IMG/VR virus record: IMGVR_UViG_3300046472_000374 | Origin: a virus | Reading direction: 5' to 3' (one strand) | DNA length: 64,000 nt | Part shown: positions 27,415 to 61,836 of the stretch, one piece after another | Layout of the letters: the number at the start of each line of letters is the position of its first letter | Position numbering within the stretch: the stretch's first letter is position 1 | Made by a program: the position numbers and the translations under genes | Notes under the pieces: generated by a model | What the model was told of the DNA's origin: nothing | The model's database searches: none | What the model saw: only the letters and a program-made list of their open reading frames with translations

Positions 27415-27423
27415 GGTCTCTCC

Positions 27424-42413: not shown

Positions 42414-42424
42414 ATTATATCACA
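42414..42424 (-). promoter_or_regulatory. Sigma70-type extended -10 promoter TGTGATATAAT
   Basis: Perfect TGn-TATAAT 20 nt before ATG 42393, overlapping the upstream TGA stop. Confidence 0.65.
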
Positions 42425-43346
42425 GGTAGGCGACAGATGTACCAAACTTTTGGACCACCTGCGCTGCTGCCGAGTTCGCAAACTTCACTGCCGATCGGAC
42501 GTCCCGAGTCTTCAGCGCACAGAAGGCCATGGCGGCCGTGTGGGTGTCCCCACAGCCGGTCACATCCTTGACCATCGCTTGAATCACTGGGAACTCCTCG
42601 GAGTGATTCACGTAGGAATCCCCGATGATCCTACCAGGGGCCAGGTCCGCCTTCACCGTCTTGGCGTGGTCACACATGATGAGGGTCGCACCCTCACTAC
42701 CGCGGGTGACCACCACGTACTGGAAGAACTCGGTGAAGTTGGTGTAGAGCTTGCTGGAGACCTGGGAGGAGTACTCCTTCTCGTTCACCTTCAGGATGTT
42801 GATCCCGTCGAAGATCCGGAGGTCCTCTCGCTTGGAGTCCACGATCGTCATGGGCGCCAGCTTCCTGAAAACCTCCATGACCTTCGGGGTGATGGTCCCC
42901 TTGTCGTAGTCGGAGAAGATGACGCAGTCGAAGCTCTGCTCCCAGTAGTCCATCATCATCTCGAAGAACTCTACCTCGGGCTGGTCGAACTTCCTGAAGT
43001 TGTCGAGACGCATGACGAAGTTGTTGTTCTCGTCCACGAACCGACGCTTGACCATCGTCTCATGCCCAAGCATCCGGTCGTGCTTGATCCCAAGCTCGCG
43101 CAGACGATGGATGACCACCAACGATCCGCAGATGCCGGCGAGGTGCACTTCCACTTCCGCTCCTCCGAGCGCCTTCAGGTTGTGAGCCACGTTGGCCGCC
43201 CCACCGAGACGGTACTCCTGGCGCAGCTCATCCCAGACGGGGATCTTGGCCTCCTCGGCCTGTCGCACCGTCTTGACGTACGTGTACTGGTCGAGCATGA
43301 TGTCCCCGACCACGAGAACCTTGTAGACCTTGTCAGGAGATTCCAC
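42420..43346 (-). CDS. PfkB sugar kinase, HldE/RfaE domain I-like (kinase 1)
   Basis: VLVVGDIMLD, RLGGAANVAHNL, SDYDKG, VTRGSEG, DVTGCGDT. Confidence 0.9.
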   Translation of the reverse strand: MESPDKVYKVLVVGDIMLDQYTYVKTVRQAEEAKIPVWDELRQEYRLGGAANVAHNLKALGGAEVEVHLAGICGSLVVIHRLRELGIKHDRMLGHETMVKRRFVDENNNFVMRLDNFRKFDQPEVEFFEMMMDYWEQSFDCVIFSDYDKGTITPKVMEVFRKLAPMTIVDSKREDLRIFDGINILKVNEKEYSSQVSSKLYTNFTEFFQYVVVTRGSEGATLIMCDHAKTVKADLAPGRIIGDSYVNHSEEFPVIQAMVKDVTGCGDTHTAAMAFCALKTRDVRSAVKFANSAAAQVVQKFGTSVAYL

Positions 43347-43824
43347 GGATCTTCTCCACGATGTTGGAGGTCGAGTTGCCGTCCAGGAACGGACAGGTCA
43401 CGACCAGGGCGAGATCAGAGCCTACCACCGTCTTGGGATCATAGTCTCCACCCTTGACGATCACATGCGGCTGCAGCGCTCTGATGAGCTCGTAGGGTGT
43501 GTCTTCCTCGAACGTAATGACGTGGTCGACCATCCTGAGATGGATGAGCAGGAGGGCGCGGGTGTGCTCATCCTGGATCGGGCGGTCCTGTCCCTTCAGG
43601 CGCTTGATCCCCTCGTCGGAGTTCAGACCTACCACCACGGTTCCCCGGGCTCCCGCCACGCTCCTGGCGTAGTTCAGGACGTCGAGGTGCCCACGGTGGA
43701 GGAGGTCGAAGCAGCCGTTGGTGAAGACGATTCGATCGTACCCCGTCTCGGGAAACAGGTACAGCCCGGCCTCCCTGATGGACCGGGCGAACCGTTCGTA
43801 TGTCTCAGACGCCTGCGAATTCAT
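43333..43824 (-). CDS. Heptose-1-phosphate nucleotidyltransferase, HldE/RfaE domain II-like
   Basis: VFTNGCFDLLHRGH, VVGLNSDE.IKRLKG..RPI, KGGDY, FLDGNSTS. Confidence 0.92.
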   Translation of the reverse strand: MNSQASETYERFARSIREAGLYLFPETGYDRIVFTNGCFDLLHRGHLDVLNYARSVAGARGTVVVGLNSDEGIKRLKGQDRPIQDEHTRALLLIHLRMVDHVITFEEDTPYELIRALQPHVIVKGGDYDPKTVVGSDLALVVTCPFLDGNSTSNIVEKIRGIS

Positions 43825-44152
43825 CCGGCCTCAGACTCCTGTCGTCGACGTACCTGTCACCCGGGGGCTTCCCGAAGATCAGCTCGTGGAACCACACTCC
43901 GTTGTCGATCAGCCAGTCCCGAGTCTTTTCTTCGTAGAGCTCGATGATCTTCTTCACGTCACCGTTGTGGGTTCGCATTCCACGAGCCGTGTGAATGGTG
44001 ACGTGCCACCCCTCGTCATAGCAGCGGTTGACCCGGGCGATGACGTCCTTCTTCGGCTGGGCGGTCCAATAGGCGTCACCCCCTGCGGTCTGTTCGCAGA
44101 GGGTGCCGTCGAGGTCCATCACCAGACGTCGGTCGTGAAAGGGATCATTCAT
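43805..44152 (-). CDS. Small HAD phosphatase (capsule-biosynthesis phosphatase type)
   Basis: MDLDGT, HTARG, FGKP...YVDD. Confidence 0.85.
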   Translation of the reverse strand: MNDPFHDRRLVMDLDGTLCEQTAGGDAYWTAQPKKDVIARVNRCYDEGWHVTIHTARGMRTHNGDVKKIIELYEEKTRDWLIDNGVWFHELIFGKPPGDRYVDDRSLRPDEFAGV

Positions 44153-45092
44153 CGATGACCGCACGATCCTTCATCTTCTCCCAGTCGTGGTCCTCCCGGA
44201 TCTCGTTGTTCCGGTCGATCACGGCGGTGAAGAGCTTCTCGGGAACGCCCTGCTGACGGCAGACGTTCCGGAGGTTGTTGATGTCCTTCGGGAAGCAGTG
44301 GCCTCCCGCGCCCAGAGAACCGTCGTGACCGGGGACGTAGGTGTGACTCACCCCGATCCGGAAGTCCAGCGTCGCCAGGGTGCGGACCTCCTCGTAGTCG
44401 ATGCCCATCTTCTGGCAGAGCTGGTACATCTCGTTGCAGAAGAGGACCTTCGTCATCAGGATGCCGTTGGTGAAGAGCTTCGCCATCTCGGCTTCCTTCG
44501 ACTCGCAGCCGACGATGACGACCTGGTTCATGAGGATCTTCTCGTAGAGCCGAGCCTCGAAGAACTTGAAGGCGACGCGCCCGTCCTCCGTGTCACCACC
44601 CAGGAGGACGCGGTTCGTGTTCTCGAAGTCGGCCACCGAGTTCTTCTCCGTGAGGAACTCGGGAGAGAAGAGCAGCCTGATCGGCATCTTCTTCCGCATC
44701 TCGTCGGTGAAGCCCGGATAGACCGTGCTCTTGACGACGACGACGAATGAGCTCGGGCTTCTTCCCTGACGCTCTGCCTCGTTCAAGATGTCCTTGAGCA
44801 CCGACTCCACGATGCCCGTGTGGCAGGAGCCGTCCTTGCGCATCGGGGTGGGCACGCAGACGAAGATGATCTCCGCCTTCCCGACCACGTCGGCCAGGGT
44901 GTCCATCTCGGGCTTGGCCTTGTCGAAGACCTTGACGTCGAAGAGCTGCGCGGGGTTCCCCTTCTCGTCCGTCTTCCAGCGGAAGAACTGCTCGACGGCG
45001 CGCCCGACGTACCCATAGCCAACCACTCCGACCGTTCCCTTGGTGGAATCGAACTTGGCTACGAAATCGGTAGCGTTGATGTCAATGCTCAT
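44145..45092 (-). CDS. UDP-glucose/GDP-mannose 6-dehydrogenase family, lacking C-terminal domain
   Basis: GVVGYGYVG, FVCVPTP, KSTVYPG, SPEFL, GGHCFPKD; ends ~30 aa after the catalytic Cys. Confidence 0.85.
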   Translation of the reverse strand: MSIDINATDFVAKFDSTKGTVGVVGYGYVGRAVEQFFRWKTDEKGNPAQLFDVKVFDKAKPEMDTLADVVGKAEIIFVCVPTPMRKDGSCHTGIVESVLKDILNEAERQGRSPSSFVVVVKSTVYPGFTDEMRKKMPIRLLFSPEFLTEKNSVADFENTNRVLLGGDTEDGRVAFKFFEARLYEKILMNQVVIVGCESKEAEMAKLFTNGILMTKVLFCNEMYQLCQKMGIDYEEVRTLATLDFRIGVSHTYVPGHDGSLGAGGHCFPKDINNLRNVCRQQGVPEKLFTAVIDRNNEIREDHDWEKMKDRAVIDE

Positions 45093-45094
45093 GC

Positions 45095-46120
45095 CTACTC
45101 TCCCTTGAACCTTTGATTGAATCTTTCCGCTTGGACCTGCCAGCTTTCCGAAACCGCCTGGTCCACCGCGTTCCTACAGATCTGAGAAGCCGCCGGGGTG
45201 CCGACCAGCTCTACTATCTTGTCGATCCATTGGTTGACAGGCCGCATGACGCCCGTCTCCATGTCTCTGACGTACTCTGAGGGGGTGCCCATGCCCGGTG
45301 GATAGAGGACCAGGCTGCCGGCGGCCTGCGCCTGGCGAGCGGCTCGTGAACTCGGCTCTTGGAAGGTCGACGAGTACGGCAGGATGCCCGTCTCATTGAA
45401 AAGCTTCCAGAGTTCCGGTCCGTTGCTCACGTTTCCGTGCCAGACGATCGACGGATGGACGATCGGGGACATGTTGGTGTAGTCCGGATGGCAGACGTGA
45501 AGCTTGAACCGACGGTCCCTGGCGTGCAGTTTCACGGCCAATTGCACCGCCCCGATCAGCCCGCGGCCCGGATCCGAGCTCCAGAGCATGGCGTGGGGGT
45601 CCTTGGAGGGCGACGGATGGTAGATCTCCGGGTCCACGCCGAAGGTTAGCTCCGTTTCGATCAGGTTCAGGCACTGGGAAGGGTCCAGACCGAGCTCTAC
45701 ACCGACCTGGTTCGCGTGCCAGCCCTTGTAGCAGATGATCTTCTTCAGCTTCCCCGAAGAGAGAGCCGCCCGGACGTCCCGCTTCCAGTCTTCTGGGTAG
45801 GTGTGGTCACAGGTGTGGAGGACATTGATGGCGTCCTTGTGGTAGAGCTCCGGAAAGAACTTCCGCCAGTGTACCACCACGTCGTAGCGGTGATGGTCGT
45901 GGCCGCCCATGTAGCTCAGCTCGGCGTCGTTGCGGAACTTGCCGCCAGACAGAAACTCCTCGGAGGCTCCGATGTAGTTCGTGGTCGTGACCGTGACGTC
46001 GTTCCCACCAAGCTCCGCGTAGTAGAACGGGATCTCCAGGTGGTACTTGTTGAACATGCGGACGTAGCCAGCTCCGAGCTTCTGGTAGTCCCGCTTGACC
46101 CCGACGAACGCGATCTTCAC
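45095..46120 (-). CDS. Glycosyltransferase, GT-B/GT4-like (divergent)
   Basis: FGVDPEIYHP, WSSDPGRGL, QEPSSRAARQAQAAGSLVLY resembles the E-x7-E GT4 segment. Confidence 0.65.
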   Translation of the reverse strand: MKIAFVGVKRDYQKLGAGYVRMFNKYHLEIPFYYAELGGNDVTVTTTNYIGASEEFLSGGKFRNDAELSYMGGHDHHRYDVVVHWRKFFPELYHKDAINVLHTCDHTYPEDWKRDVRAALSSGKLKKIICYKGWHANQVGVELGLDPSQCLNLIETELTFGVDPEIYHPSPSKDPHAMLWSSDPGRGLIGAVQLAVKLHARDRRFKLHVCHPDYTNMSPIVHPSIVWHGNVSNGPELWKLFNETGILPYSSTFQEPSSRAARQAQAAGSLVLYPPGMGTPSEYVRDMETGVMRPVNQWIDKIVELVGTPAASQICRNAVDQAVSESWQVQAERFNQRFKGE

Positions 46121-46722
46121 TGGTCACCCCAGGTCAGTTCAGCCTTGGTGGCTCTGAGCTTGATGTTCCAGTTCGCCTGCTGGTGATCGTGTTCCAGGGC
46201 GTGGATGTTGGCGAAACCGTTCTTCTCCAGGAGCCTGCCCAACACCTCCTCGGTGAAGGCGGTGTAGTGCCAGTTCCCTTGGACGTCCTGCCCCCCATAG
46301 AGCCTATGGATGGCGGCGTCCTGGATGTCTGCGATGCTCTGGCCACACTTCGAGCACCCATGGCCGTCCGACCCCAGCATCCAGTTGCCACACCGGTTGC
46401 ACTGGTAGTCCAGACCGTCGTCGTCCAGCACGGCGTAGGCGCAGTGTTGGAAGTCCGGCACCTGGATGTCCACCGTCCCGCCGGGAAGCAGGACTCGCCA
46501 GACTTCCTGCAGGATCTTCTCCGTCTGCTTGTACGGGAAGTGTTCGAGGAAGTCCAACATGAGGATCTCCTCGGCCGACTCATCCTCCCACGGCCAAGGC
46601 AGCTTGGACAGGTCCGTCAGCAGGAACCCGACGTCGGCCGGGATCCACTTCGGACCCAGGAAGTCAACATTGAGATATCCGGGCCGGAGGTCCGACCCGC
46701 ATCCGAGATTGAGCTTCATCAC
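46117..46722 (-). CDS. Class I SAM methyltransferase (type 11-like)
   Basis: KLNLGCG, YLNVD, LPWPWEDES, FLEHF, WRVLLPGG..DIQVPD. Confidence 0.85.
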   Translation of the reverse strand: MMKLNLGCGSDLRPGYLNVDFLGPKWIPADVGFLLTDLSKLPWPWEDESAEEILMLDFLEHFPYKQTEKILQEVWRVLLPGGTVDIQVPDFQHCAYAVLDDDGLDYQCNRCGNWMLGSDGHGCSKCGQSIADIQDAAIHRLYGGQDVQGNWHYTAFTEEVLGRLLEKNGFANIHALEHDHQQANWNIKLRATKAELTWGDQ

Positions 46723-47609
46723 AGGCTCCTGATGAAATCGACCATCTGCTGGGCGCGATGCTCCGGCTTGTGGCCGGCCATCATCTCACCGTAGAGGTCA
46801 TGGGCCAGCTGCTGACGGTGGCCCGGGTCGGCGAGCAGGTAGCGGACCTGGTCCTGGAGGTCCTGCTCGCTGGAGAAGAACCAGAAGCTCTTGATCCCGT
46901 CTCGAGCAGTCTCGTTTGAAACGACGTTCGACAGGACGCAGGAGCGTGTCATGCCCGCCTCGAAGTGTCGGCACTGGTAGCCGTAGCCGAAACCGAACTC
47001 CTGCCCCACGTCGGTCGCGTGGTTCAGGATGATCTTCGAGCGGTTGTACATCAGGTTCAGTTGCTCGATGTCGTAGATCGCACCGTGGAAGAAGGTGTGC
47101 ACTCCCGGCATGTTGTTGACGATCTGGCACATCCTGACCCGGCTCTTGTGGTTGGCACCTGGTGTCAGGCTTCCAATGAAGCAGACGTCGATGTCCTTCT
47201 CTACCTGAGGGAGCGGGCGGTAGAGCGTGTCATCTGCCGTCAGGAGCAAACGCTCCGCCTTCTTGTACCCGTACTCCCGGGCCAGCTGGGCGCCGTCTTC
47301 GTCGAACGTGAAGGCGAAGTCACAGTACTTCCGCATGTCCAGCATCATCTGCTTGATGTGCGGGAAGCGAAGATCGTCGGGCTGGTAGACGATCTTCTTG
47401 CCCTTGGTGATGGCCAGGTCATGCCAGTAGCCCTGCATGGTCTTGAAGACCACCGTGGCGTCGGCGTCGTAGTCCCAGACCTGACCGGGCTGGCTGTCGT
47501 CGATGACATTCACCAGGTGCTCGCCGAGACGGTCGAAGCCTTTCTTGAAGGCGATCTCCGTCCCGAACGGGGCGTTCCTGATGAATGCTCCGACGAGGTT
47601 GATACGCAT
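46719..47609 (-). CDS. Glycosyltransferase, CgeB/Glyco_trans_1_2-like
   Basis: DIDVCFIGS, YNRSKIILN, RHFEAGMT, ADPGHRQQLA. Confidence 0.75.
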   Translation of the reverse strand: MRINLVGAFIRNAPFGTEIAFKKGFDRLGEHLVNVIDDSQPGQVWDYDADATVVFKTMQGYWHDLAITKGKKIVYQPDDLRFPHIKQMMLDMRKYCDFAFTFDEDGAQLAREYGYKKAERLLLTADDTLYRPLPQVEKDIDVCFIGSLTPGANHKSRVRMCQIVNNMPGVHTFFHGAIYDIEQLNLMYNRSKIILNHATDVGQEFGFGYGYQCRHFEAGMTRSCVLSNVVSNETARDGIKSFWFFSSEQDLQDQVRYLLADPGHRQQLAHDLYGEMMAGHKPEHRAQQMVDFIRSL

Positions 47610-47813
47610 CTACTCGTCCTGGGTGCTCACGTAGCCGAGGACCTTGAGGACGCGCTGGCTAAGCTTCTTGAACTGCTCATCGATCAGCGCGTCTTCCTTC
47701 TCGGTCCGACCCTCGTCACCCTCGACGGAGCCGATGTTGAGGACAGCGTCGACCAGGACTTCCTTCGCCAGATCCTTGGGAGAGCACTTCTCGCCCTTCT
47801 TGTTCTTGATCAT
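47610..47813 (-). CDS. Small hypothetical protein
   Basis: MIKNKKGEK... 67 aa with GGGGGA SD, fills the gap exactly. Confidence 0.5.
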   Translation of the reverse strand: MIKNKKGEKCSPKDLAKEVLVDAVLNIGSVEGDEGRTEKEDALIDEQFKKLSQRVLKVLGYVSTQDE

Positions 47814-47814
47814 T

Positions 47815-48186
47815 TCAGTTCCCCTTTTCGACTCGGTATGAGTCGGATTCTTCGTGCATGGTGCTGAACTCGAACAGGTCCGACTCCTCGATGGCGCCGA
47901 TCTGGTGGACCAGACCACGGTCGATGAGGATGGACTCACCCGGCAGGAGGTCGACGTAGTACGGCGCCCCCTTCTCCGGGTCAATCAGTTTCAGACGGAC
48001 GTGTCCCTTCTGCAAGTACATCGTCTCCATCTTGTTCATGTGGAAGTGCAGGCTGCAGCACTTGTCCTTGTAGATGTGGAGGAGCTTGCCACAGTACTCC
48101 GGCTCGTTCTCGATCCAGAGCTCGTAGCCCCACCCGCGCTCGACGCGCTTGATGTCGGACGCGGTCCTCTTCTTTACTTCAGCCAT
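47815..48186 (-). CDS. Cupin, sugar-phosphate isomerase/epimerase-like
   Basis: RGWGYELWI...CCSLHFH..KMET.Y...HQIGA...EFST cupin metal motifs; start MAEVKK at 48186. Confidence 0.8.
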   Translation of the reverse strand: MAEVKKRTASDIKRVERGWGYELWIENEPEYCGKLLHIYKDKCCSLHFHMNKMETMYLQKGHVRLKLIDPEKGAPYYVDLLPGESILIDRGLVHQIGAIEESDLFEFSTMHEESDSYRVEKGN

Positions 48187-48887
48187 GAGTCGATGTCCTC
48201 CTGGAATTGCTTGACCGCCTTGTCCGTCTGGGGATGGGCGATCACCTGCTTGATGATCGACAGGGAAGCCGTCACGATGTCCGCCCCGTTCAGCCAGCAG
48301 TCCTGCAGGTCTTCCGGCTTCCGGATGCTGCCACAGATGATACGGCAGTTTCGGTTCAGATCGTTGGCGAACAGGCTCAGCTCCATGTCGGCGTCCAGAT
48401 CCCCGTCCTTCATCCGATTGTAGAAGAACGAGACGATGGGAGCGCCGGCATCGTGGGCCAGCTTCGCCTGAAGGGCTGTCATGGCCGCGGTGGCGTTCAC
48501 CTTGACCCCGTCGTCGCCAAGTCTCGAGATCACCTCGAGTGACTCGAAGAGGATCGGGATCTTGACGTGCAGCTGCACCTTGTCGTACTTCCCGAGGGCG
48601 TCCCGAAGACGGTGCGCCTGATCGTACATCTCCTGGGGATCGAGGGTGATGACCTCGACCGAGAGGTGCTTCCTGGCCCGCGCACGAGTCTGGAAGACCT
48701 GGCAGACGTCGTCCAGTCGCTTGACGTAGTGGTCCCACTTCTCCTTCGAGAAGCGAGGTTCCAGCGAGACGACCTTGGTCTCCTTGGCCATGAGTGACGG
48801 GTTGGTCGTCACACCGGCCACGGCGTCCGTCCGGACCGCGAGGGAGATGTCGTCCAGGTTCGCGCTGTCGAGGAAGAGCTCTTTCAT
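48174..48887 (-). CDS. tal: Transaldolase (small TalC/FSA subfamily)
   Basis: LFLDSAN, GVTTNPSL, SVEV, VKIP (Schiff-base Lys), VNAT, VSFFYNR, GSIR. Confidence 0.9.
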   Translation of the reverse strand: MKELFLDSANLDDISLAVRTDAVAGVTTNPSLMAKETKVVSLEPRFSKEKWDHYVKRLDDVCQVFQTRARARKHLSVEVITLDPQEMYDQAHRLRDALGKYDKVQLHVKIPILFESLEVISRLGDDGVKVNATAAMTALQAKLAHDAGAPIVSFFYNRMKDGDLDADMELSLFANDLNRNCRIICGSIRKPEDLQDCWLNGADIVTASLSIIKQVIAHPQTDKAVKQFQEDIDSWLK

Positions 48888-49804: not shown

Positions 49805-50243
49805 CGAGGTACCCCAGCTTCTCCACCCTGGCGATGTGACGGCCTTCCTCGAAGGCGGTCTCCAGGAAGGTGTGGATGAGCTCGTCCATGGAACCCAGGG
49901 GAGTGCGCCACTGGCCGAGGACGAGGACATTGCAGTCGTTGTGCTGGCGCATGAGCTCGGCCGTGGCGCGATCCGTCGCCAGGCCGGCGCGGATGGAACG
50001 GAACCGGTTGGCGGCGATCAGCATGCCCGTCCCCGTACCGCAGATCAGGATTCCGGTGGCGTCGTCCTTCATGACGCCCTTGCACAGCTTCTCGGCGATG
50101 TCCGTGTAGTCGACCTTGTGCTCGTAGTCGTCCCCGTTGACGTCGCACACGCAGTAGCCAGCGGCCAGCAGGAGCTTCATGATGTAGCCCCGGGCCGCGT
50201 TCCCGTTGTGGTCTGAACCGAGGTAGATGGTGTTACTGTCCAT
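49794..50243 (-). CDS. rpiB: Ribose-5-phosphate isomerase B
   Basis: GSDHNG, VDY, GILICGTGTGM.IAANR, HNDCNVLVLG, GRH..RV. Confidence 0.92.
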   Translation of the reverse strand: MDSNTIYLGSDHNGNAARGYIMKLLLAAGYCVCDVNGDDYEHKVDYTDIAEKLCKGVMKDDATGILICGTGTGMLIAANRFRSIRAGLATDRATAELMRQHNDCNVLVLGQWRTPLGSMDELIHTFLETAFEEGRHIARVEKLGYLGDE

Positions 50244-53978: not shown

Positions 53979-53985
53979 GTGTCCC

Positions 53986-55654: not shown

Positions 55655-56415
55655 CCGAGTTCCCTTCTGACGTTGAGCTTGTCCGAGTCTGACTCGGGCA
55701 TCTCACGTCCGTTCTGGAGCCAAGTGCTCTTGTCGTAGCCTGCGTGCACCATCATACCAGGAAACACCAGGTTGGTGCGCCCAGTCTTGCAGACAGAGTT
55801 TGGGTGATTGCGGATGAACCACCAGTCGACTCCCGATCCCATGCCGTCGTTGGGCTTGGCCCGCACTCGGCTGGTCTCCCAGTCGAGTCGGGGGATCGGG
55901 AACATGCTCATCCAGTATTCTCTACGGGCGAACATGTTGGCCGCCCGGATCCAGTCCTTGAGGATCATGCCGTTCCCGATGTCTTTCCGGACGACGTGCT
56001 CGATGGACTCGATCCCGGAGGCGAAGCCGAGCTTGTACTGCTTCTCGAAGAGGAGGAAGAACTTGGCCATCTTCGGGAGCCAGCCCTTGGTGACCAGCAC
56101 ATCGTCTTGGATGTAGCAGACGAACGCCGCCACCTGAGCCTTGTCGCCGTGGGTCGGGTGGGCGTACCACTCGTTCAGGGCGTTGATGTGGGCCAAGGCC
56201 TGGTTGATGGATGGACCCAGCCCCAGGTTCTCGGTGTGGATCAGGGTGTGGTCGGGGAGGGTCCGGAGGAGCGGGGCGACGGAAGAACCGTCGACGACGA
56301 GGTGGAGGCGGTACTGGTCTCGCTCAGTGTTCTCAGCGATGGCCTTCAGGCACTTTTCGAGGAGGTCCGTCCGACCGGGCTTGTGGGTGACGAAGATGTC
56401 CGCGATGAGGGCCAT
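55651..56415 (-). CDS. GT2 (GT-A) glycosyltransferase
   Basis: R..LLEKCL, HLVVDGS, ENLGLG..IN.AL, YIQDD. Confidence 0.8.
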   Translation of the reverse strand: MALIADIFVTHKPGRTDLLEKCLKAIAENTERDQYRLHLVVDGSSVAPLLRTLPDHTLIHTENLGLGPSINQALAHINALNEWYAHPTHGDKAQVAAFVCYIQDDVLVTKGWLPKMAKFFLLFEKQYKLGFASGIESIEHVVRKDIGNGMILKDWIRAANMFARREYWMSMFPIPRLDWETSRVRAKPNDGMGSGVDWWFIRNHPNSVCKTGRTNLVFPGMMVHAGYDKSTWLQNGREMPESDSDKLNVRRELG

Positions 56416-56424
56416 ACACTAACT

Positions 56425-56435
56425 ATTATATCACA
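56425..56435 (-). promoter_or_regulatory. Sigma70-type extended -10 promoter TGTGATATAAT
   Basis: Identical 11-mer to 42414-42424; 9 nt before ATG 56415. Confidence 0.6.
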
Positions 56436-59400
56436 CTTCCATCCTGGCGATCCACTCTTTCATCACGGCAGGATTTGAACGCTTCAGCTCGAAGACCGGC
56501 GCCTTCTGGTGCTCTCCGCCCTGGGCCTTCATCTCGGCCGCCTTCTTCAGGACGTCTTCCTCGGTCTTCACCTCGGGAAAGCGGGGCTGCGGCGCCGGAT
56601 CGTTGTAGAGGTTGCTCCAGCACTTGTCCCAGAAGTCCCGGAAGTTCCGGATCTTGCGGGGGATGTCCGCCCACGAGTAGTGGTAGACTGACGGGAGCTC
56701 TCCATAGATCTGGTTCATCTTCTCGCCAAAGGCCTCCGGGTTGGAACGACGGAGCATCTCCATACCCTTGTCGTAGAAGCCGATGTGCGGGACGAAGTCG
56801 TAGTTCATCATGTCGATGTACTCGCAACCGTCCGACATGCCCTTCCGGGCGAAGGTCTTGCCGGTCTTCTCGTCCACCACCCGAGCGTCCTTGAAGATGC
56901 CGTGGGTGATGTTGAAGACGTTCCGGCTGAGGCGCCACTTCCAGGTGTGACGGTCCGTGCGACAGTGCTTGCTGTCGCCCCAGAGCTCCACCACCGGAAG
57001 GTGGACCAGGCTGACTTCCTTCGGGAAGCGCTTGACGAGCGCCCTGACCTTGTCGTAGTCTTCCTCGTGGACGACCTCGTCGCAGTCCTGCTGCCAGAGG
57101 AAGTCCCCGGTGCAGAGGGCCCGACCGAACGCCTTCTGCTGTCCGTCCATTCCCGGCTCTTCCCAGTCCCACGGGCGGACCGAGACCTCGAGCCGCGGCT
57201 CTTCCTTCGCCCAGGCCTGGAGCTTCTCCAGGGTCTCGTCCTGGGATCCACCGTCCACCACGACCACCTGGTCGCAGAAGCCGAGCATGGACTGGATGGA
57301 CTCCTTCCACGGGTACCCCTGCTTGCTGGGGTTCAGGATGTGGGTGTAGCCGCTGATGGTCGGGCGGTACTCCTTGTAGTCCGTCATCTTCTCCATGATG
57401 ACCGAGGAGTTGGAGTGCATCGCGATGACGCGAAGAGTCTCCTCCACGACCTTCTTCGGAGAGATCTCGTTGACGCAGGGATGGTCCTTGTCCACCGAGC
57501 AGGTGTACTTGTAGCAGGCCCGGTCGCAGGAATAGCGGTCCGGCGTGTCCAGCAGGACGGCCAGCTTCTTCTTGTTGACCGGACCCGTGGACGTGGCGTA
57601 GGAGCTCCCGTAGAGGGAGACCTGTGGAACGTCCAGACCGTCCGCCAGGTGGGACGTGACCGAGTCGATGCTGAGGAGGAGCTTGGCGCCCTTGACCACG
57701 GAGGCCAGCTGGTTGTAGCTGGTCTTGCCACGGAAGTCGACGACGTCCTTGTACTCCGGATCGTCCGGCATTCCGACCTGGACGACCGGAAGTCCCGTCA
57801 TGGCCCGCAGGTTGCTGATGACCTCCTGCCAGTGCAGGTAGTTCCGTGCCTCCCACTGTCCCTTACCCGATCCGGGGTTGAGGACGATGTACTCCTCGGG
57901 GAGCCCGTCGACCTTGTCCAGGGCGATCCGGTACTCTCCGAACTCCACGTCGCAGAGGTGCGCCATCTCGTTTCCGAGGAGGCGTCCCTTGCCACGCTTG
58001 ACCCAGTTGGCCGCCGTGGTCTGGATGGCCAGGTTGGGTGTGAAGACGTCGTCGAAGACCTGCTCGCAGAGCGGGACGTTCTGCATCCAGCCCTCGAACT
58101 GGACGCCCTGGTCGATGTCCGGGTTGTCCCGGATGATCGAGGCGTACTGCTCGTTCGTGGCGAAGAAGATCTTGTGTTCCGGGAACTTCTTCCGGAGGGA
58201 GTTCACGACCGCCGTGGAGATGTAGACGTCCCCGGCCGACATGGGCATCGTGTAGAGGAGGGTCTTCTTCCCGTCCCCCGAGAAGCGCTTCTTGAGGAGA
58301 GCGACCGCCTCCGCCTCCGAGCGGGGGTTCTGGGCGGTGTGGAGCTTCAGGAACTCCCCGATGGACTGGTAGAGCGTGTAGCCGGTCTTCTGCTCGGAGA
58401 AGTTCTCGGCCACGTGCTTGGCCAGTTCGGCCGCCCACTCCTTCGGCTTCTCGTAGCTGAGGGTCAGCTTCTTCAGCTTCAGCTTTACGTCGTCTTCCTT
58501 GGGGTTGGCCCACTGGCTCCCCTTCTCCATGACGCCGTTCCAGATGCAGGACTCGGGGATCTCCTTGAGCTCGTACTCCAGGGGAACGAACTTCTTCCGT
58601 CCGTCGATCTGGAGGAAGTCCAGGTGACCCGACCAGGCGGTGGCCACGACCGGCAGGCCGCAGGCGGCGGCCTCCAGGAGCGGCAATCCGAAGCCCTCTC
58701 CGTGGGTCAGGGACACCAGCGCCTTGACCTGGGGATGCTTATACAGGCCCGCCATCTCGGCATCACTCAGACGTCCGTGGATGAGCTGGATGCGGGGGAA
58801 CTTCTCGCATCCGACCAGCTTCTTGATCTCCTTGAGCCGGTGGACCATCGTGTCGTAGTCCATGAGGGACCCGTTGACGATGCCCGCCTTCAGGACCAGA
58901 CCCACATTCGGGTCATCCTTGAAGCGCTCGCAGAACCACTTGACGAGGTTGCCGAGGTTCTTCCGGTCCTCGCCCAGCGGCTTGTCCAGCCCCAGCCCCA
59001 CGAAGAGGTAGTTGAAGGGTGCGTCGAGCTCGAACTTCCGGACGTCCTCGGGGACGGGATCCGTGTTGTAGTACCGGACGTCCACGCCCTCGTGGCAGAC
59101 CGCCAGGGGCTTGGTGACCCTGAGCTGTCCTTCGGGGGTGTTGTACCCCACGTTGAGCATGGTGTTCTTGGAATGCTCCGAGGGGACGACGATGAGGTCG
59201 ATCTTCTCGTTGATCTTCTTGATCCACTCCGGGGAGACGCGGTCGACCTCGATGCCGGCCGTGATGCCGATGTTCACCCGGGCCATCTTCTCGAACTCGT
59301 TCGGGATGGTGACCTGGACGGACACGTCGTACTGCGTGTTCCCCTGGGCCTTCTCCATCTCGTACTTGACGATGAGGTCCTTGATCTTGGCGAAGAACGG

Positions 59401-59556
59401 GGTCTGGTCGAGGATATACGAGGTATTGCCCCAGTTGCAGGCCATCACACTGACGTCGTACTCCCCGCAGGCCAGGAGGGCCTTGAGTACCTGTCGGGAG
59501 TGGACACCGTAGCCCGAGGCCGTGAGGACCGGGGCGCGGAGGAGGAGCTTGAGCAT
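56431..59556 (-). CDS. Three-domain glycosyltransferase fusion GT4-GT9-GT2
   Basis: GT4: SGYG, GEGFGLPLLEAAACGLPVV. GT9: AGDVYISTAVVNSLRKKFP, SIDSVTSHLA..LDVPQVSLYG. GT2: DQVVVVDGGSQDET, WQQDCDE. Confidence 0.88.
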   Translation of the reverse strand: MLKLLLRAPVLTASGYGVHSRQVLKALLACGEYDVSVMACNWGNTSYILDQTPFFAKIKDLIVKYEMEKAQGNTQYDVSVQVTIPNEFEKMARVNIGITAGIEVDRVSPEWIKKINEKIDLIVVPSEHSKNTMLNVGYNTPEGQLRVTKPLAVCHEGVDVRYYNTDPVPEDVRKFELDAPFNYLFVGLGLDKPLGEDRKNLGNLVKWFCERFKDDPNVGLVLKAGIVNGSLMDYDTMVHRLKEIKKLVGCEKFPRIQLIHGRLSDAEMAGLYKHPQVKALVSLTHGEGFGLPLLEAAACGLPVVATAWSGHLDFLQIDGRKKFVPLEYELKEIPESCIWNGVMEKGSQWANPKEDDVKLKLKKLTLSYEKPKEWAAELAKHVAENFSEQKTGYTLYQSIGEFLKLHTAQNPRSEAEAVALLKKRFSGDGKKTLLYTMPMSAGDVYISTAVVNSLRKKFPEHKIFFATNEQYASIIRDNPDIDQGVQFEGWMQNVPLCEQVFDDVFTPNLAIQTTAANWVKRGKGRLLGNEMAHLCDVEFGEYRIALDKVDGLPEEYIVLNPGSGKGQWEARNYLHWQEVISNLRAMTGLPVVQVGMPDDPEYKDVVDFRGKTSYNQLASVVKGAKLLLSIDSVTSHLADGLDVPQVSLYGSSYATSTGPVNKKKLAVLLDTPDRYSCDRACYKYTCSVDKDHPCVNEISPKKVVEETLRVIAMHSNSSVIMEKMTDYKEYRPTISGYTHILNPSKQGYPWKESIQSMLGFCDQVVVVDGGSQDETLEKLQAWAKEEPRLEVSVRPWDWEEPGMDGQQKAFGRALCTGDFLWQQDCDEVVHEEDYDKVRALVKRFPKEVSLVHLPVVELWGDSKHCRTDRHTWKWRLSRNVFNITHGIFKDARVVDEKTGKTFARKGMSDGCEYIDMMNYDFVPHIGFYDKGMEMLRRSNPEAFGEKMNQIYGELPSVYHYSWADIPRKIRNFRDFWDKCWSNLYNDPAPQPRFPEVKTEEDVLKKAAEMKAQGGEHQKAPVFELKRSNPAVMKEWIARMEV

Positions 59557-59566
59557 CGGATGCCTT

Positions 59567-60505
59567 TCAGCGAGCCAGGATGATGCTGGGTTGGTTTCGC
59601 TTCTCGTAGAGGTCCAGGACCTCCAGACCCTGCTTCAGACTGAGCTGGGGATTCCACCCCAGGACGTCCCGGGCCTTGCTGTTGTCGGCCAGGGTGACCA
59701 TCGCCTCGGCCGGACGGTCGGGGATGTAGGTCTTCTCGCCGCCGACCATGTCGGCTACCTGGTTGATCGAGTAGTTCACGCCGGTCCCGATGTTGAACAC
59801 ACCGGTCGCGTTGCGGTTCATGGCTGCCAGCATGTTGGCCCGGACCACGTCGCCGACGAAGGTGAAGTCCCGGCGCTTCTCGCCGGTCCCCACGACCGTC
59901 AGCGGCAGGCCTTCCCGCAGCTGCTTCCTGAAGATGGCGATGACGGTGGCGTACGAGCCCTCTTCCTGGTGGCGGGGGCCGTAGACGTTGAAGTAGCGGA
60001 GGGCCACAGTGGAGAGCCCGTAGAGTTTGGTGTAGACCTCACAAACGTCCTCACCGAACTTCTTCCCCAGGGCGTAGGGGTTGAGGCAGTCGGAAGGCAT
60101 CGTCTCCTTGAGGGGAGGCTTGTTCTTCAGACCGTAGCAGCTGGAGCTGGCCGAGTAGACGACCCGCTTGACCCCGCCCTGACGGCAGGCCTCGAGGACG
60201 TTGGCCGACCCCATGCAGTTCTGGCTGAACGCCAGAAGGGGGTCGGTGATGCTCGGCTGGATCCGGCTCATGGCCGCCAGGTGGAACACCCAGTCCTTGT
60301 GGTCCACCACCCGCCGAACCATGTCGAAGTCCCGGATGTCTCCCCGGACGACCTCGAGTCTGGGCTCGTCTTTCCAACGGTAGAGGTTCTCGATCTTCCC
60401 TTCCGAGAAGTTGTCGAGGACCATGACCTCGTGTCCCTGCACCAGGAGCTCGTCGACCAGGTGCGACCCGATGAAACCCGCTCCTCCGAGAACTGCAACC
60501 GGCAT
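59567..60505 (-). CDS. NAD-dependent NDP-sugar epimerase/dehydratase (extended SDR)
   Basis: GGAGFIGSH, HLAA, SSSCYG, YALGK (YxxxK), LRYFNVYGP, RDFTFV; start MPVAV at 60505 with AGGAGA SD. Confidence 0.92.
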   Translation of the reverse strand: MPVAVLGGAGFIGSHLVDELLVQGHEVMVLDNFSEGKIENLYRWKDEPRLEVVRGDIRDFDMVRRVVDHKDWVFHLAAMSRIQPSITDPLLAFSQNCMGSANVLEACRQGGVKRVVYSASSSCYGLKNKPPLKETMPSDCLNPYALGKKFGEDVCEVYTKLYGLSTVALRYFNVYGPRHQEEGSYATVIAIFRKQLREGLPLTVVGTGEKRRDFTFVGDVVRANMLAAMNRNATGVFNIGTGVNYSINQVADMVGGEKTYIPDRPAEAMVTLADNSKARDVLGWNPQLSLKQGLEVLDLYEKRNQPSIILAR

Positions 60506-60513
60506 GTCTTCTC

Positions 60514-61836
60514 CTAGACTGAGGCCAGGCGGACGTTCTGACGTCCGCGCCCCTTGTAAATATTGATCTGACCTTCCAGGACCTTGTCCCAGTCGTCGAT
60601 CATCTTTTGCTCGCCGAAGTTCTCGGCGACCCACTGACGAGCCTCGAGACCGAGAGCCCTCCGTTTCTGCCTTCCCATCTCGTAGAGCCGGACGAGGCCG
60701 GAGACCACGTCGTCGTGGTTCACCTTGTCGTCGTAGATGTAGGGGATCGGCTGGCTGCCCGTGCAGGAGCGGGAGGCCGTGAAGACGGGGCTGCCCCACC
60801 ACTTACCCTTGCCGGCGCGGTACATCTTTTTGGCATGGGCCGTGAGCTTCTCCTGGTCACGAAAGTCCTTGAGATCCTTCCACCAGTCGCCCATCTGGTA
60901 CTGGAGACCACCTGTCATGTGGACGATGATGGGGGTCCCTGAGGAGAGAGACTCCAGGGTGCCCAGACCGAACCCCTCGTTGGAGGCGATGTTGATCGTG
61001 GCGTCGCAGACGTTGAGGAGCATGTTCAGCTTGGCCGGTTCGATTCGGGCCTCGCTGATGATGAGGTTGTTGTCGATGTTGAACCGTTCGGCTACCGCCG
61101 AGATGTCCTGCCCTTCGGGATCGTGCACGTTGGTGTGCATGAAGAGGGCGACGTTCTGCTTGCCCACCTTCTCGGCGAACTTGGCGAAGGTGGCCACCAC
61201 GTCTCCGGTCTGCTTCCGGCGGGCGTTGCGGTTGTTCCAGAAGAGGATGAACTTCTTGTCCGCGTGGGGACCGAGATGCTCCCGCTTGAACTTCTGGATC
61301 TCTTCCTCGTCGAGAGGCTTGAAGTTGTCCATGGAGACCGAGTGGGGGATGTAGCTGCAGCGCTCGTACCCCATGTCATCCAGGAGGCCCTTCGTCTTCA
61401 TCGACAGGGCCACAATGTGGTCGGTCGACTCGTACAGGACCTTGTTGAACTTCGGGGTCGGATCGTTGTCCCAGACGTGCCAGTAGACGATCGGGCACTC
61501 GGCGCGGACCTCGTCCTCGATCTCCCAGAGCCACATAAAGAAGCGTGGATCGGTGAAGATGAAGACCGCGTCCGGACGTTCGGCCATGATCATCTGCCGG
61601 ATCGTGTTCTTGTCGCCGTGGCCCTCGACCGGGAAGATGATCCAGTCGTCCCCGAACTTGTCGGGAGCCACCTTCTGCGGTCTCATGTCGGGGTGCTTGA
61701 TCGCGCCACCGAGACAGATGAACTTGTACTTTCCGGTGGCGAGCAGCCCCTCGATGAGGTACTTCGCCTGGGTGCCGACACCCGAGGGAACGAGGGGGTG
61801 ATCGGAAAGAAAGAGGATCTTGCGCTTCTCGGCCAT
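60514..61836 (-). CDS. GT4 glycosyltransferase
   Basis: SGVGTQ, YIPHSV, NRNARRK, EGFGLGTLESLSSGTPII. Confidence 0.88.
   Translation of the reverse strand: MAEKRKILFLSDHPLVPSGVGTQAKYLIEGLLATGKYKFICLGGAIKHPDMRPQKVAPDKFGDDWIIFPVEGHGDKNTIRQMIMAERPDAVFIFTDPRFFMWLWEIEDEVRAECPIVYWHVWDNDPTPKFNKVLYESTDHIVALSMKTKGLLDDMGYERCSYIPHSVSMDNFKPLDEEEIQKFKREHLGPHADKKFILFWNNRNARRKQTGDVVATFAKFAEKVGKQNVALFMHTNVHDPEGQDISAVAERFNIDNNLIISEARIEPAKLNMLLNVCDATINIASNEGFGLGTLESLSSGTPIIVHMTGGLQYQMGDWWKDLKDFRDQEKLTAHAKKMYRAGKGKWWGSPVFTASRSCTGSQPIPYIYDDKVNHDDVVSGLVRLYEMGRQKRRALGLEARQWVAENFGEQKMIDDWDKVLEGQINIYKGRGRQNVRLASV

Follow-up and report, generated by a model that had tools for sequence, protein, structure and literature searches.

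An uncultured phage with a genome of roughly 205 kb carries a 19-kb glycan island at positions 42420–61836, minus strand, of the 64-kb stretch analyzed here (the window). The best, if tentative, reading of the island is a soluble assembly line in the cytoplasm for glycosylating proteins of the virion. The likeliest acceptors are baseplate and fibre proteins of the phage itself, with DNA or the host surface less likely, and a long, methylated hetero-oligosaccharide, already proposed in a first-pass annotation of this DNA, is a fair prediction for the product. The island would give the phage its own sugar activation, and its ten soluble glycosyltransferase (GT) domains and its methyltransferases would join and methylate the activated sugars.

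Layout and conservation of the island

Our gene calls place 23 genes, all in one orientation, within 42420–61836, and independent JGI gene calling on the same DNA likewise gives 23. Genes overlap or abut at 15 of the 22 junctions and the widest gap is 43 nt, bearing out the first-pass description of co-oriented, mainly coupled genes. The conserved upstream border is a PD-(D/E)XK nuclease gene (61844..62746, minus strand; Pfam PDDEXK_1), and the same border gene is kept ahead of the glycan islands of the relatives G002 and G003, Flavobacterium phage immuto and Microcystis phage Mel-JY01. Downstream, a conserved 241-aa gene (40954..41679, minus strand; 45–97% identity among relatives; Pfam Sigma70_r2 at a weak E of 0.047 only) separates the island from the baseplate genes; gp25-like and gp6-like baseplate genes follow it. 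A putative promoter motif, CTA[TGC]TTA, occurs at 63626..63632 (minus strand), upstream of the gene string running into the island, and at 48924, just upstream of g14. All ten of its copies are on the minus strand, the majority upstream of structural genes.

The island is syntenic in 15 IMG/VR contigs at 40–88% amino acid identity, and the collinear genomes that bear it span GC contents of 37%, 61% and 66%. Within the window, island and remainder have the same GC (0.610 each). To judge from the sequence, the island is an old, ameliorated resident, and its synteny across genomes of 37–66% GC implies an acceptor that suits very different hosts, as a phage protein does. In the cultured phages immuto and Mel-JY01 the equivalent position, after the nuclease, is occupied by a smaller island with orthologues of g01 and of the g03 N-terminus. 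GT9 and heptose-type genes were not found in any cultured phage.

Enzymes encoded by the island

The ten GT domains comprise four GT4-like (g01, the g03 N-terminus, g05 and g19), two GT9 (the g03 middle domain and g10, both exceeding the Pfam cut-off), two GT2 (the g03 C-terminus and g04) and two CgeB-like domains (PF13524; g09 and g17). The first island gene, g01 (60514..61836; this and all following island coordinates are on the minus strand), encodes a 440-aa retaining-type GT4 (Pfam Glycos_transf_1, 29.3 bits). Against the PDB, its AF2 model (pLDDT 94) ranks chlorovirus NY-2A B736L first (3oy2, E 9e-20) and MshA and BshA next; comparison by sequence likewise puts 3oy2 at the top, making the chlorovirus enzyme the closest PDB GT by both sequence and fold. 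A similarity search with g01 gave 237 clusters at E ≤ 1e-30. Two GTs are kept in the cultured relatives: g01, whose orthologues in immuto and Mel-JY01 are 34–35% identical, and the N-terminal GT4 of g03. The latter gene (56431..59556) encodes a single 1041-aa polypeptide with three Pfam domains, Glycos_transf_1 (residues 242–314), Glyco_transf_9 (542–677, 49.4 bits) and Glycos_transf_2 (762–856). This fusion is retained, at 1055–1099 aa, in G002, G003 and a 202,787-bp relative; in cultured phages, homologues were found for its N-terminal GT4 only.

Among the other GTs, g04 (55651..56415; 254 aa) is a GT2 of GT-A type present in all relatives (Glycos_transf_2, 25.1 bits), g05 (54635..55654; 339 aa) is a GT4 (Glyco_trans_1_4 and Glyco_transf_4), and g09 (51776..52819; 347 aa) and g17 (46719..47609; 296 aa) are CgeB-like (Glyco_trans_1_2, 54 and 47.2 bits, the latter with a weak DUF3880 match). 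The 301-aa product of g10 (50874..51779) belongs to GT9, the heptosyltransferase family (Glyco_transf_9, 51.5 bits, cut-off 22), and weakly matches WaaF (PDB 1psw). It has at least 245 metagenomic homologues, many from contigs of 180–207 kb, and none in 50,697 phage records. g19 (45095..46120; 341 aa), which is in all relatives and has no match in Pfam or NCBIfam, is a probable GT4-like enzyme by its protein-atlas features (0.98–0.99 to Glycos_transf_1 clusters, many viral).

Of the three methyltransferases, g18 (46117..46719; 200 aa) is a class I enzyme found in all relatives (Methyltransf_11, 28.3 bits). The accessory g07 (53376..53942; 188 aa), of the CmcI/rhamnosyl-O-methyltransferase type (Methyltransf_24 and RMNT_CmcI), is missing from L001, a relative at 83% identity, as well as from most other relatives. 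Also accessory, g08 (52816..53376; 186 aa) has no Pfam match and is a probable class I SAM methyltransferase by atlas features (0.95–0.97) and structure (TM 0.74–0.80 to Methyltransf_11 clusters). The 222-aa product of g06 (53986..54654) is DUF2334/polysaccharide-deacetylase-like (DUF2334 35.5, Polysacc_deac_1 24.1 bits). A 67-aa ORF of unassigned function that is specific to this phage, g16 (47610..47813; JGI call), has no homologue in any relative, L001 included.

The core gene g15 (47815..48186; 123 aa) encodes a metal-binding cupin (Lyx_isomer and Cupin_1) whose H47, H49, E54 and H94, invariant across 11 orthologues, make up a 3His-1Glu metal site. Its AF2 model (pLDDT 90.7) best matches, over the whole chain, Thermococcus phosphomannose isomerase (7zvy/7zvm, TM 0.73/0.82), with D-lyxose isomerase also among the matches, and it is predicted to be a probable aldose–ketose sugar-phosphate isomerase. 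The last island gene, also core, is g23 (42420..43346; 308 aa), an HldA-like PfkB sugar-phosphate kinase (PfkB, 79.9 bits; TIGR02198, 167.7 bits, short of the 345-bit cut-off). Next to it are g22 (43333..43824; 163 aa), an HldC-like sugar-1-phosphate nucleotidyltransferase (CTP_transf_like, 59.6 bits; TIGR02199 rfaE_dom_II, 154.6 bits versus a cut-off of 181.5), and g21 (43805..44152; 115 aa), a small HAD phosphatase (TIGR01689 'capsule biosynthesis phosphatase', 66.9 bits; best PDB match 1xpj, 61 bits). The 315-aa NDP-sugar dehydrogenase g20 (44145..45092) has the UDPG_MGDP_dh_N and central domains and lacks the usual C-terminal one (TIGR03026, 171 bits over profile positions 71–305 of 413); its counterparts in the relatives are similarly short (305–306 aa). 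g02 (59567..60505; 312 aa) is an NAD-dependent SDR sugar-nucleotide epimerase/dehydratase (Epimerase 196, GDP_Man_Dehyd 204 bits), with NCBIfam scores for GalE (168 bits), LegB (150) and HldD (134) that are all under the cut-offs. Its start codon, the ATG at 60505, has an AGGAG site, and the JGI call is also 312 aa.

An accessory cassette contains g11 (50233..50865; 210 aa), an AraD-like class II aldolase/epimerase (Aldolase_II, 127.5 bits; NCBIfam L-ribulose-5-P 4-epimerase, 148.6 bits, under the cut-off); g12 (49794..50243; 149 aa), an RpiB/LacAB sugar-phosphate isomerase (LacAB_rpiB, 136.6 bits; NCBIfam RpiB subfamily, 139.4 bits, exceeding its cut-off of 135); g13 (48884..49804; 306 aa), a PfkB kinase with HldA as best-scoring model (TIGR02198 rfaE_dom_I, 126.6 bits, below 345); and g14 (48174..48887; 237 aa), a TalC/FSA-type transaldolase or fructose-6-P aldolase (TAL_FSA, 118.9 bits; TIGR00875, 120.9 bits). 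This cassette and two of the methyltransferases are variably present between close relatives. No SIS/GmhA domain was found in G002 or G003. The activated sugars made by the island are probably seven-carbon, an assignment drawn from matches to the HldA, HldC and HldD models that stay below threshold; alternatively, the same route may yield an NDP-hexose. Pfam/NCBIfam, atlas features and structure together confirmed the first-pass inventory of GTs, methyltransferases, deacetylase, kinases, phosphatase, nucleotidyltransferase, epimerase and dehydrogenase.

Proposed assembly line and its acceptor

We propose that the island is a self-sufficient, wholly soluble glycan assembly line in the cytoplasm of the infected cell. 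Going by the family assignments, g15, a metal-dependent PMI-like cupin, would isomerise a ketose phosphate, most likely sedoheptulose-7-P to manno-heptose-7-P; g23 would put a phosphate onto the anomeric position, g21 would take off the distal phosphate and g22 would then form the NDP-sugar. g02 and g20 may modify the resulting NDP-sugar or a donor supplied by the host. The optional g11–g14 cassette would channel pentose-phosphate carbon to the precursor through TalC, RpiB, the AraD-like enzyme and a second kinase, or might instead be the source of a second sugar. From these donors the ten GT domains would build a hetero-oligosaccharide, probably started by the GT4 pair of g01 and the g03 N-terminus that is conserved across host phyla, extended by the GT9, GT2 and CgeB-like domains, and finished by the three methyltransferases and the deacetylase-like enzyme.

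The acceptor is the weakest step of this scheme; it is predicted to be phage-encoded virion protein, most plausibly the distal baseplate/fibre proteins, whose genes follow immediately downstream. An [ST]-G-S motif pervades these proteins: 95 copies were observed in the structural proteins of the window versus 14.8 expected, and one in the island enzymes versus 1.9 expected. The corresponding counts are 46 versus 10.7 in G003 and 36 versus 8.7 in the immuto fibre proteins. The motif may instead serve purely as a structural linker, and its tie to the GTs is correlative. As precedents, the chlorovirus capsid is glycosylated by soluble multi-domain GTs and methyltransferases (PMC9614988), and PMC12619734 cites mycobacteriophage virion glycosylation. 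The reported PDB neighbours of phage DNA arabinosyltransferases are likewise MshA, BshA and SPS, and the GT4 fold cannot discriminate between acceptors.

Weighing of alternative acceptors

No island protein has a membrane-helix-grade hydrophobic segment, and no polytopic membrane protein (an ORF with ≥5 hydrophobic segments) was found in the window or in two 91–96% complete relatives. The first-pass statement that a flippase, polymerase and priming transferase are missing holds across all three; the conclusion drawn from it, a cytoplasmic rather than a host acceptor, is partly supported. The usual substrates of soluble GT9 and GT4 enzymes are lipid-linked intermediates on the cytoplasmic side of the membrane, with host flippases exporting the product, so a host acceptor is conceivable without phage export genes. 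On this reading, which we consider unlikely, the island GTs would modify host lipid-linked intermediates, either lipid A-core or Und-PP-linked units, on the inner membrane's cytoplasmic side, and the altered glycan, exported by host flippases, would change receptors and block superinfection. The island and its GT4 pair persist across phages of Flavobacterium, Microcystis and further hosts of 37–66% GC with differing lipid-linked acceptors; priming transferase, ligase and flippase are all absent from two near-complete genomes; the island sits among virion genes and may be co-transcribed with them; and a 19-kb outlay on the surface of a soon-lysed cell would be of little use to a lytic phage. 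Set against this, GT9, GT4 and GT2 with an HldA/HldC-type pathway are classical LPS-core enzymes requiring no export genes of their own. LPS-type gene clusters have already been published for aquatic myophages, and comparable 'LPS-related' clusters, with rfaE, UDP-glucose dehydrogenase and GTs, close to the tail-fibre genes of pelagi- and cyanomyophages were read as modifying the host O-chain (PMC7029224).

Glycosylation of phage DNA is a live rival because all five long island-bearing relatives checked have, at a great distance from the island, a MilA-like thymidylate-synthase (ThyA) homologue specific for cytosine. In G002 and G003 its best PDB match is the CMP hydroxymethylase MilA (139 bits versus 82 for thymidylate synthase), and Asp occupies the synthase Asn177 position, at which the SPO1 dUMP hydroxymethylase retains Asn. 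This enzyme would replace dC by 5-hydroxymethyl- or 5-hydroxy-dC, to which some or all island GTs would attach the island's NDP-sugar, on the model of base glycosylation in T4, RB69/DLP3 and 5hmC-glycan clusters. Consistent with this, the Asp-bearing family co-occurs with the GT9 on contigs of 202,787, 195,088 and 140,856 bp, the homologue in G002 has a MazG-like gene some 2 kb away, and all Glycos_transf_1 and Glycos_transf_2 matches in G002 and G003 are confined to the island. The isomerase–kinase–phosphatase–nucleotidyltransferase logic also parallels the phage UDP-arabinose pathway, 1xpj being the top structural match of phage arabinose-1,5-bisphosphate phosphatases (PMC13326640), and reconstitution of heptose on 5hmC has been reported. 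The first-pass annotation saw no nucleotide hydroxymethylase or TET/JBP, and our search agrees in finding no ThyA, TET or JBP homologue within the 64-kb window of the phage's own genome; its caveat about a base-modifying enzyme elsewhere matters, given the homologue in the relatives. There the gene lies in the replication module, 80–100 kb from the island, whereas known DNA-glycan clusters place GTs beside the base-modifying enzyme. Known DNA glycans have at most three sugars, far short of ten GT domains, three methyltransferases and a deacetylase, and the near-neutral pI of the island GTs is a further, weak counterpoint. Moreover, immuto, with its syntenic island and conserved GT4 pair, has DNA with canonical dA, dC and dT plus non-glycosylated fdPreQ1 (10.1101/2023.04.13.536721) and encodes an ordinary ThyA, and Mel-JY01 carries the island yet no ThyA homologue at all, so the conserved core needs no hydroxylated pyrimidine. 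DNA hypermodification is improbable in our estimate, and immuto lends indirect support to the original preference for a virion protein rather than DNA. More doubtful still is a division of labor in which the GT4 pair serves the virion and a clade-specific heptose/GT9 module serves DNA, a small molecule or a free oligosaccharide. It would fit the modular make-up of the island, with a GT4 pair common to immuto and Mel-JY01, heptose-type and GT9 genes that were found in no cultured phage, a variable cassette and two variable methyltransferases, and the co-occurrence of the heptose/GT9 module with the ThyA homologue in one clade. A second acceptor has no positive support, however, and gene order and tight coupling across 19 kb suggest a single pathway.

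Gene content and surroundings of the island

The island comprises 23 consecutive minus-strand genes (g01–g23 in transcription order), running from 61836 to 42420 in our own gene calls, within a window of ~61% GC where nearly all genes lie on the minus strand. The same 23 genes appear in JGI's independent calls for L002, identical DNA from metagenome 3300046533; its contig, Ga0495640_0000011, measures 204,678 bp, and the window corresponds to bases 9908–73907 of it. Overlapping or abutting junctions account for 15 of the 22, and the widest gap is 43 nt. Using Pfam, NCBIfam and atlas searches, we assigned the genes, all on the minus strand, to a GT4 glycosyltransferase (GT; g01), an SDR epimerase/dehydratase (g02), a 1041-aa GT4+GT9+GT2 fusion (g03), a GT2 (g04), a GT4 (g05), a DUF2334/deacetylase-like protein (g06), a CmcI-type methyltransferase (g07, in the region 53385–53984), a methyltransferase-like protein (g08), a CgeB-like GT (g09), a GT9 (g10), an AraD-like class II aldolase/epimerase (g11), RpiB (g12), an HldA-like kinase (g13), TalC/FSA (g14), a 123-aa cupin whose reading frame was checked (g15), a 67-aa ORF (g16), a second CgeB-like GT (g17), a methyltransferase (g18, 46117–46719), a GT4-like protein (g19), a C-terminally shortened NDP-sugar dehydrogenase (g20, 44145–45092), a small HAD phosphatase (g21), an HldC-like nucleotidyltransferase (g22) and a second HldA-like kinase (g23). 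The assignments of g08 and g19 come from the atlas only. This inventory matches the list of the first-pass annotation, which confirms that observation. The C-terminal domain missing from g20 (315 aa) is the nucleotide-sugar-binding one; relatives keep the short form (305–306 aa), and it is therefore not a truncation artefact. The C-terminal half of g18 matches the phage FDXHR zinc-binding domain weakly (E 0.002).

Upstream, the island adjoins a PD-(D/E)XK nuclease gene. On its downstream side come some small genes and a conserved gene of 241 aa that weakly matches sigma region 2; baseplate genes resembling gp25 and gp6, and large fibre-like proteins, lie beyond. By baseplate protein (~35% identity), the closest cultured phages are the Microcystis phage Mel-JY01 and the Flavobacterium phage immuto, grown on Flavobacterium sp. 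LMO8, along with a 484-kb uncultured phage. All ten copies of the motif CTA[TGC]TTA in the window are on the minus strand, mostly upstream of structural genes; one copy, at 63632, lies ahead of the gene string entering the island, and another precedes TalC. This distribution weakly supports a possible co-expression of the island with the virion genes. A distinct motif, TATAAT[AG], has four minus-strand copies (56430, 53995, 42419 and 40465), each immediately ahead of the start of a gene: g04, g07, a 61-aa gene after the island and one gene further downstream.

Conservation and modularity

The island recurs in the same order at 15 IMG/VR loci (40–88% aa identity) and is also carried by a 202,787-bp ENA contig. 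For its GT9 gene, g10, metagenomes yielded at least 245 homologues, and many of these sit on 180–207-kb contigs. Two near-complete relatives, G003 (196.5 kb, 37% GC) and G002 (185.5 kb, 66% GC), were examined whole; both are collinear with the window, with the nuclease followed by the island and then by baseplate and fibre genes. In each genome compared, the GC content of the island equals that of its own genome. The island is therefore an old, ameliorated part of the phage lineage and not a recent acquisition. None of 50,697 phage records matched the island in a megablast search. Collinear genomes of this one lineage at 37%, 61% and 66% GC (G003, the window and G002) imply hosts from very different groups served by one genome plan.

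The core set consists of g01–g06, g09, g10, g15, g17–g20, g22 and g23. The AraD–RpiB–kinase–TalC cassette is found in about half of the relatives, and g07, g08 and g16 are likewise variable. L001, a relative with 83% nucleotide identity, lacks exactly this cassette (48187–50988 of the window, ~2.8 kb, replaced by ~145 bp) as well as the CmcI-type methyltransferase (53385–53984), both being clean cassette-level indels in an otherwise collinear operon. Smaller islands stand directly after the PD-(D/E)XK nuclease in immuto (~11 kb) and Mel-JY01 (~6 kb). Both phages encode full-length orthologues of g01 (34–35% identity; KNV73_gp181 in immuto) and of the N-terminal GT4 domain of g03 (34–37%), and immuto has an orthologue of the SDR. 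The g01 orthologue of Mel-JY01 (83444–84905) has been annotated as a pair of neighbouring ORFs, and its alignment likewise comes in two parts; the gene may be frameshifted or split, or the sequence may contain an error.

A putative heptose-type activation route

The HldA model TIGR02198 is the best model for both island kinases (167.7 and 126.6 bits; cut-off 345). g22 likewise scores best on the HldC model TIGR02199, which it covers whole (154.6 bits; cut-off 181.5), and the g02 SDR scores higher as GalE (168 bits) than as HldD (134.5 bits; cut-off 274.6). All HldA, HldC and HldD scores are thus under the NCBI equivalog cut-offs. No GmhB was found in the island, the g21 phosphatase matching TIGR01689 and 1xpj instead, so that neither GmhB nor HldD of the ADP-heptose pathway was recovered. 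1xpj, the best PDB match of g21, is also the nearest structural neighbour of the phage arabinose-1,5-bisphosphate phosphatases in the RB69/DLP3 study (PMC13326640). A SIS domain, as in GmhA, is absent from the island proteins, and PF13580 has no match in the whole of G002 and G003.

The only isomerase candidate in the core set is the g15 cupin, whose orthologues share an invariant His-x-His...Glu...His metal site. Its model (pLDDT 90.7) matches the ~110-aa Thermococcus phosphomannose isomerases (PMI) over the whole chain (TM 0.73/0.82) and also D-lyxose isomerases. Generic metal cupins (oxalate decarboxylase) rank first in the fold search, with sugar-phosphate isomerases only among the whole-chain matches. 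A role as an RmlC/FdtA-type enzyme acting on NDP-keto-sugars is less likely because the 3His-1Glu metal site is intact.

The combination of a PfkB kinase, a cytidylyltransferase-fold enzyme, a HAD phosphatase and two GT9 domains points to a heptose-type route, in which a sugar-omega-phosphate would be converted to the 1,omega-bisphosphate, then to the sugar-1-phosphate and finally to the NDP-sugar. Sedoheptulose-7-phosphate and fructose-6-phosphate have the same C3–C5 configuration, so a PMI-like enzyme such as g15 could plausibly make manno-heptose-7-phosphate from the former. The TalC of the cassette fits a supply of sedoheptulose-7-phosphate. An NDP-hexose is a possible alternative product of the same route. 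The kinase, phosphatase and nucleotidyltransferase chemistry is that of the ADP-L-glycero-beta-D-manno-heptose pathway (GmhA, HldE or HldA+HldC, GmhB, HldD), and the likeness to the LPS heptosyltransferase (WaaC/WaaF) system extends to the two GT9 domains and to the SDR with its additional HldD score. However, a PMI-like cupin takes the place of the GmhA/SIS isomerase, the phosphatase belongs to another small HAD family, and the lipid A–core context is lacking. Its gene set suggests that heptose-type sugar activation can start from a cupin, an entry not described before.

Glycosyltransferases

Both g10 (51.5 bits) and the middle domain of g03 (49.4 bits) exceed the cut-off of 22 for PF01075 and are assigned to GT9, the heptosyltransferase family, with donor and acceptor only predicted. 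No GT9 homologue of g10 was found in cultured phages among the 50,697 phage records. PDB sequence searches with the GT9 domains returned WaaF, WaaC and the uncharacterised GT9 3tov, all weakly; for the autotransporter heptosyltransferases (BAHT, TibC/Aah), no TibC chain appeared even at E<=1. The idea that the island GT9s are closer to TibC/Aah than to LPS heptosyltransferases is not supported by these matches.

By sequence and fold alike, the best PDB neighbour of g01 is chlorovirus B736L, and we know of no acceptor described for B736L itself. Protein, small-molecule and DNA GTs were indistinguishable in the g01 fold search; T4 beta-GT was not among the best 50 matches, which is weak evidence. 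Four core GT families are described in 'Moraphages' (PMC12619734).

G002 and G003 carry one other GT-like gene, RGP/GT75-like, beside the DNA polymerase (G003 131337–132479; G002 36103–37095). It directly follows the DNA polymerase III alpha gene, and its 380-aa product matches PF03214 ('reversibly glycosylated polypeptide'; GT75/UDP-arabinopyranose-mutase family) with 122.8 bits. A role as a DNA glycosyltransferase was considered for this gene, which may equally encode a UDP-arabinopyranose mutase; we found no literature on PF03214 RGP-like genes in phages.

Absence of export machinery

No island protein reached the membrane-helix hydropathy threshold, and all are soluble. In a crude hydropathy scan that covered all ORFs of the window, G002 and G003, no ORF had as many as five hydrophobic segments. 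Two ORFs of the window with 3–4 segments are antisense to genes and low in GC3, and were rejected as artefacts. Neither a Wzx/Wzy- or ABC-type flippase/polymerase nor a lipid-carrier priming transferase was found in these three sequences. The absence of export genes stated in the first-pass annotation was therefore borne out in the window, and the hydropathy scan extends it to the two whole relatives.

A cytosine-type ThyA homologue in the relatives

The same annotation had allowed for DNA as the acceptor if a base-modifying enzyme lay elsewhere. This is the case in G002 and G003, each with one low-scoring PF00303 match (77–106 bits), and not within the 64-kb window, where neither a ThyA homologue nor another hydroxylated-pyrimidine gene was found. 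A Tet_JBP search gave no match but lacked a positive control. With the relatives' ThyA homologue as seed, no copy from the window's contig was among the matches listed, which is uninformative either way. The best PDB match of the G003 homologue is the CMP hydroxymethylase MilA (139 bits, versus 82 for true thymidylate synthases (TS)). Asp is invariant in the family at the position of TS Asn177, where the SPO1 dUMP hydroxymethylase has Asn. According to the Asn-to-Asp rule of T4 dCMP hydroxymethylase, this Asp confers cytosine specificity, and the ThyA homologue is therefore read as cytosine-specific. It is present in all five long island-bearing relatives examined, and family members share contigs of 202,787, 195,088 and 140,856 bp with GT9. 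From its presence, the lineage is predicted to have 5-hydroxymethyl- or 5-hydroxy-cytosine in its DNA. The MilA-like ThyA homologues of RB69, DLP3 and RL38J1 make 5-hydroxy-dCMP, and GT4-like enzymes then glycosylate it (PMC13326640).

Candidate acceptors

The analysis confirms the island and finds it conserved, soluble and self-supplying. Virion-protein glycosylation is its best reading, which we adopt tentatively and with a predicted acceptor; the first-pass interpretation is partly supported, in that inventory and lack of export hold, and its virion-protein acceptor stands beside live rivals. Circumstantial pointers are the baseplate-gene neighbourhood, the soluble enzymes and the candidate acceptors themselves: certain baseplate and fibre proteins hold the [ST]-G-S tripeptide far more often than expected. 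The structural proteins of the window contain 95 such motifs against 14.8 expected (single proteins up to z=16), G003, at 37% GC, has 46 against 10.7, and the fibre proteins of immuto have 36 against 8.7, compared with 1 against 1.9 in the island enzymes; this is a correlation only. There is precedent in chlorovirus PBCV-1, where soluble cytoplasmic GTs of the virus equip a virion protein with a methylated oligosaccharide, using no ER or export machinery (PMC9614988). Like the island, that system (A064R, A111/114R, A061L; B736L/A546L) has three-domain GT polypeptides and dedicated sugar O-methyltransferases. It differs in belonging to a eukaryotic virus, with N-linked glycans, scattered genes instead of one operon, neither a heptose-type activation pathway nor GT9, and a proven acceptor, whereas that of the island is predicted. 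Virion O-glycosylation is also reported for the mycobacteriophages Che8, Corndog and Myrna (Freeman et al. 2023, PMC10527164, as cited in PMC12619734). These, too, are tailed phages with GT and methyltransferase genes beside structural genes and modify their own virion proteins. Freeman et al. (2023) are said to have reported two to four GTs and host sugar donors in the mycobacteriophage systems, whereas the island has 10 GT domains and its own sugar-nucleotide pathway; the two are likened by gene content, not by sequence. A more specific version, in which the PMI-like cupin would provide NDP-heptose independently of GmhA and the GT9s would act as protein heptosyltransferases building an O-methylated heptose oligosaccharide on [ST]-G-S serines of baseplate and fibre proteins, is doubtful. 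If true, it would represent a large, conserved tailed-phage virion-glycosylation system of giant-virus scale.

The cytosine-specific, MilA-like ThyA homologue of the relatives, with a MazG-like gene ~2 kb away in G002, raises the alternative that the island GTs decorate a modified base. All Glycos_transf_1 and Glycos_transf_2 matches of G002 and G003 are located inside the island, and heptose has been reconstituted on 5hmC from a phage cluster (10.1101/2023.12.21.572611). DNA-glycan systems (T4 a/b-GT, RB69/DLP3 arabinosyl-5hoC and the 5hmC-glycan clusters of Pyle et al.) likewise combine GT-B/GT4-like with GT-A enzymes, reach their donors by isomerase, kinase, HAD phosphatase and nucleotidyltransferase, include heptose among their reported sugars and share a MilA-like ThyA homologue with the island-bearing relatives. 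Unlike them, the island has no base-modifying gene nearby: in G002 and G003 the ThyA gene lies 80–100 kb away in the replication module, without adjoining GTs. No DNA glycan described comes close to requiring as many GT and tailoring domains as the island has. Against DNA glycosylation, moreover, in the LC-UV-MS study of immuto virion DNA (10.1101/2023.04.13.536721), dA, dC and dT were canonical, fdPreQ1 stood in for all of the dG, and the authors reported no glycosylated nucleoside; immuto carries the island core and is the sole relative with nucleoside data, standing outside the GT9 clade. Its ThyA is an ordinary one by profile (280 bits), and Mel-JY01 has no ThyA homologue, so the core is kept without any hydroxylated pyrimidine. 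We regard DNA glycosylation as unlikely. Remodelling of host surface glycans appears similarly improbable. It would be compatible with the missing export genes if host flippases exported host lipid-linked acceptors, and LPS-type clusters (rfaE, UGDH and GTs) beside the fibre genes of pelagimyophages and cyanomyophages are interpreted as host O-chain modification (PMC7029224). Those clusters, which lie in a hypervariable tail-fibre region, resemble the island in their large aquatic myophage setting, rfaE-like, UDP-glucose-dehydrogenase-like and GT genes, and position beside tail-fibre or baseplate genes. They differ in phage lineage and in being dominated by GT8, whereas GT4, GT9, GT2 and CgeB-like domains dominate the island; their function is likewise only inferred. 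A split function or another acceptor seems quite unlikely.

Among these features, LPS-type clusters in aquatic myophages and virion glycosylation in mycobacteriophages and giant viruses are already known (PMC7029224, PMC9614988 and PMC12619734). Distinctive are the scale, with 10 GT domains of which three are fused in one protein, the cupin route that dispenses with GmhA, a GT9 absent from cultured phages in the 50,697 records, and the co-resident cytosine-specific ThyA homologue of the relatives. Should the acceptor prove to be the virion, this tailed-phage lineage, widespread in aquatic and groundwater settings, would coat its host-recognition apparatus with a self-made complex glycan, bearing on host range, protease resistance and fibre-protein modelling. 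The acceptor question is testable because two cultured relatives, immuto and Mel-JY01, carry the conserved core. Whichever target the island has, modified DNA in the lineage would be relevant to sequencing and defence-evasion studies.

Further observations on ThyA loci

The ThyA homologue lies at 124648–125553 in G003 and 47405–48184 in G002, with a conserved DHHA1-domain neighbour, and its family counts over 1,500 members in metagenomes. In 33 of 80 listed loci of more distant phages, a g02-like SDR lies within 6 kb of it, which hints at sugar-nucleotide tailoring linked to base modification in those phages. The ThyA match of immuto (26905–28149) lies in a 423-aa open frame and is divided into two stretches of the profile, a pattern that points to an insertion in a thymidylate synthase of otherwise canonical type.
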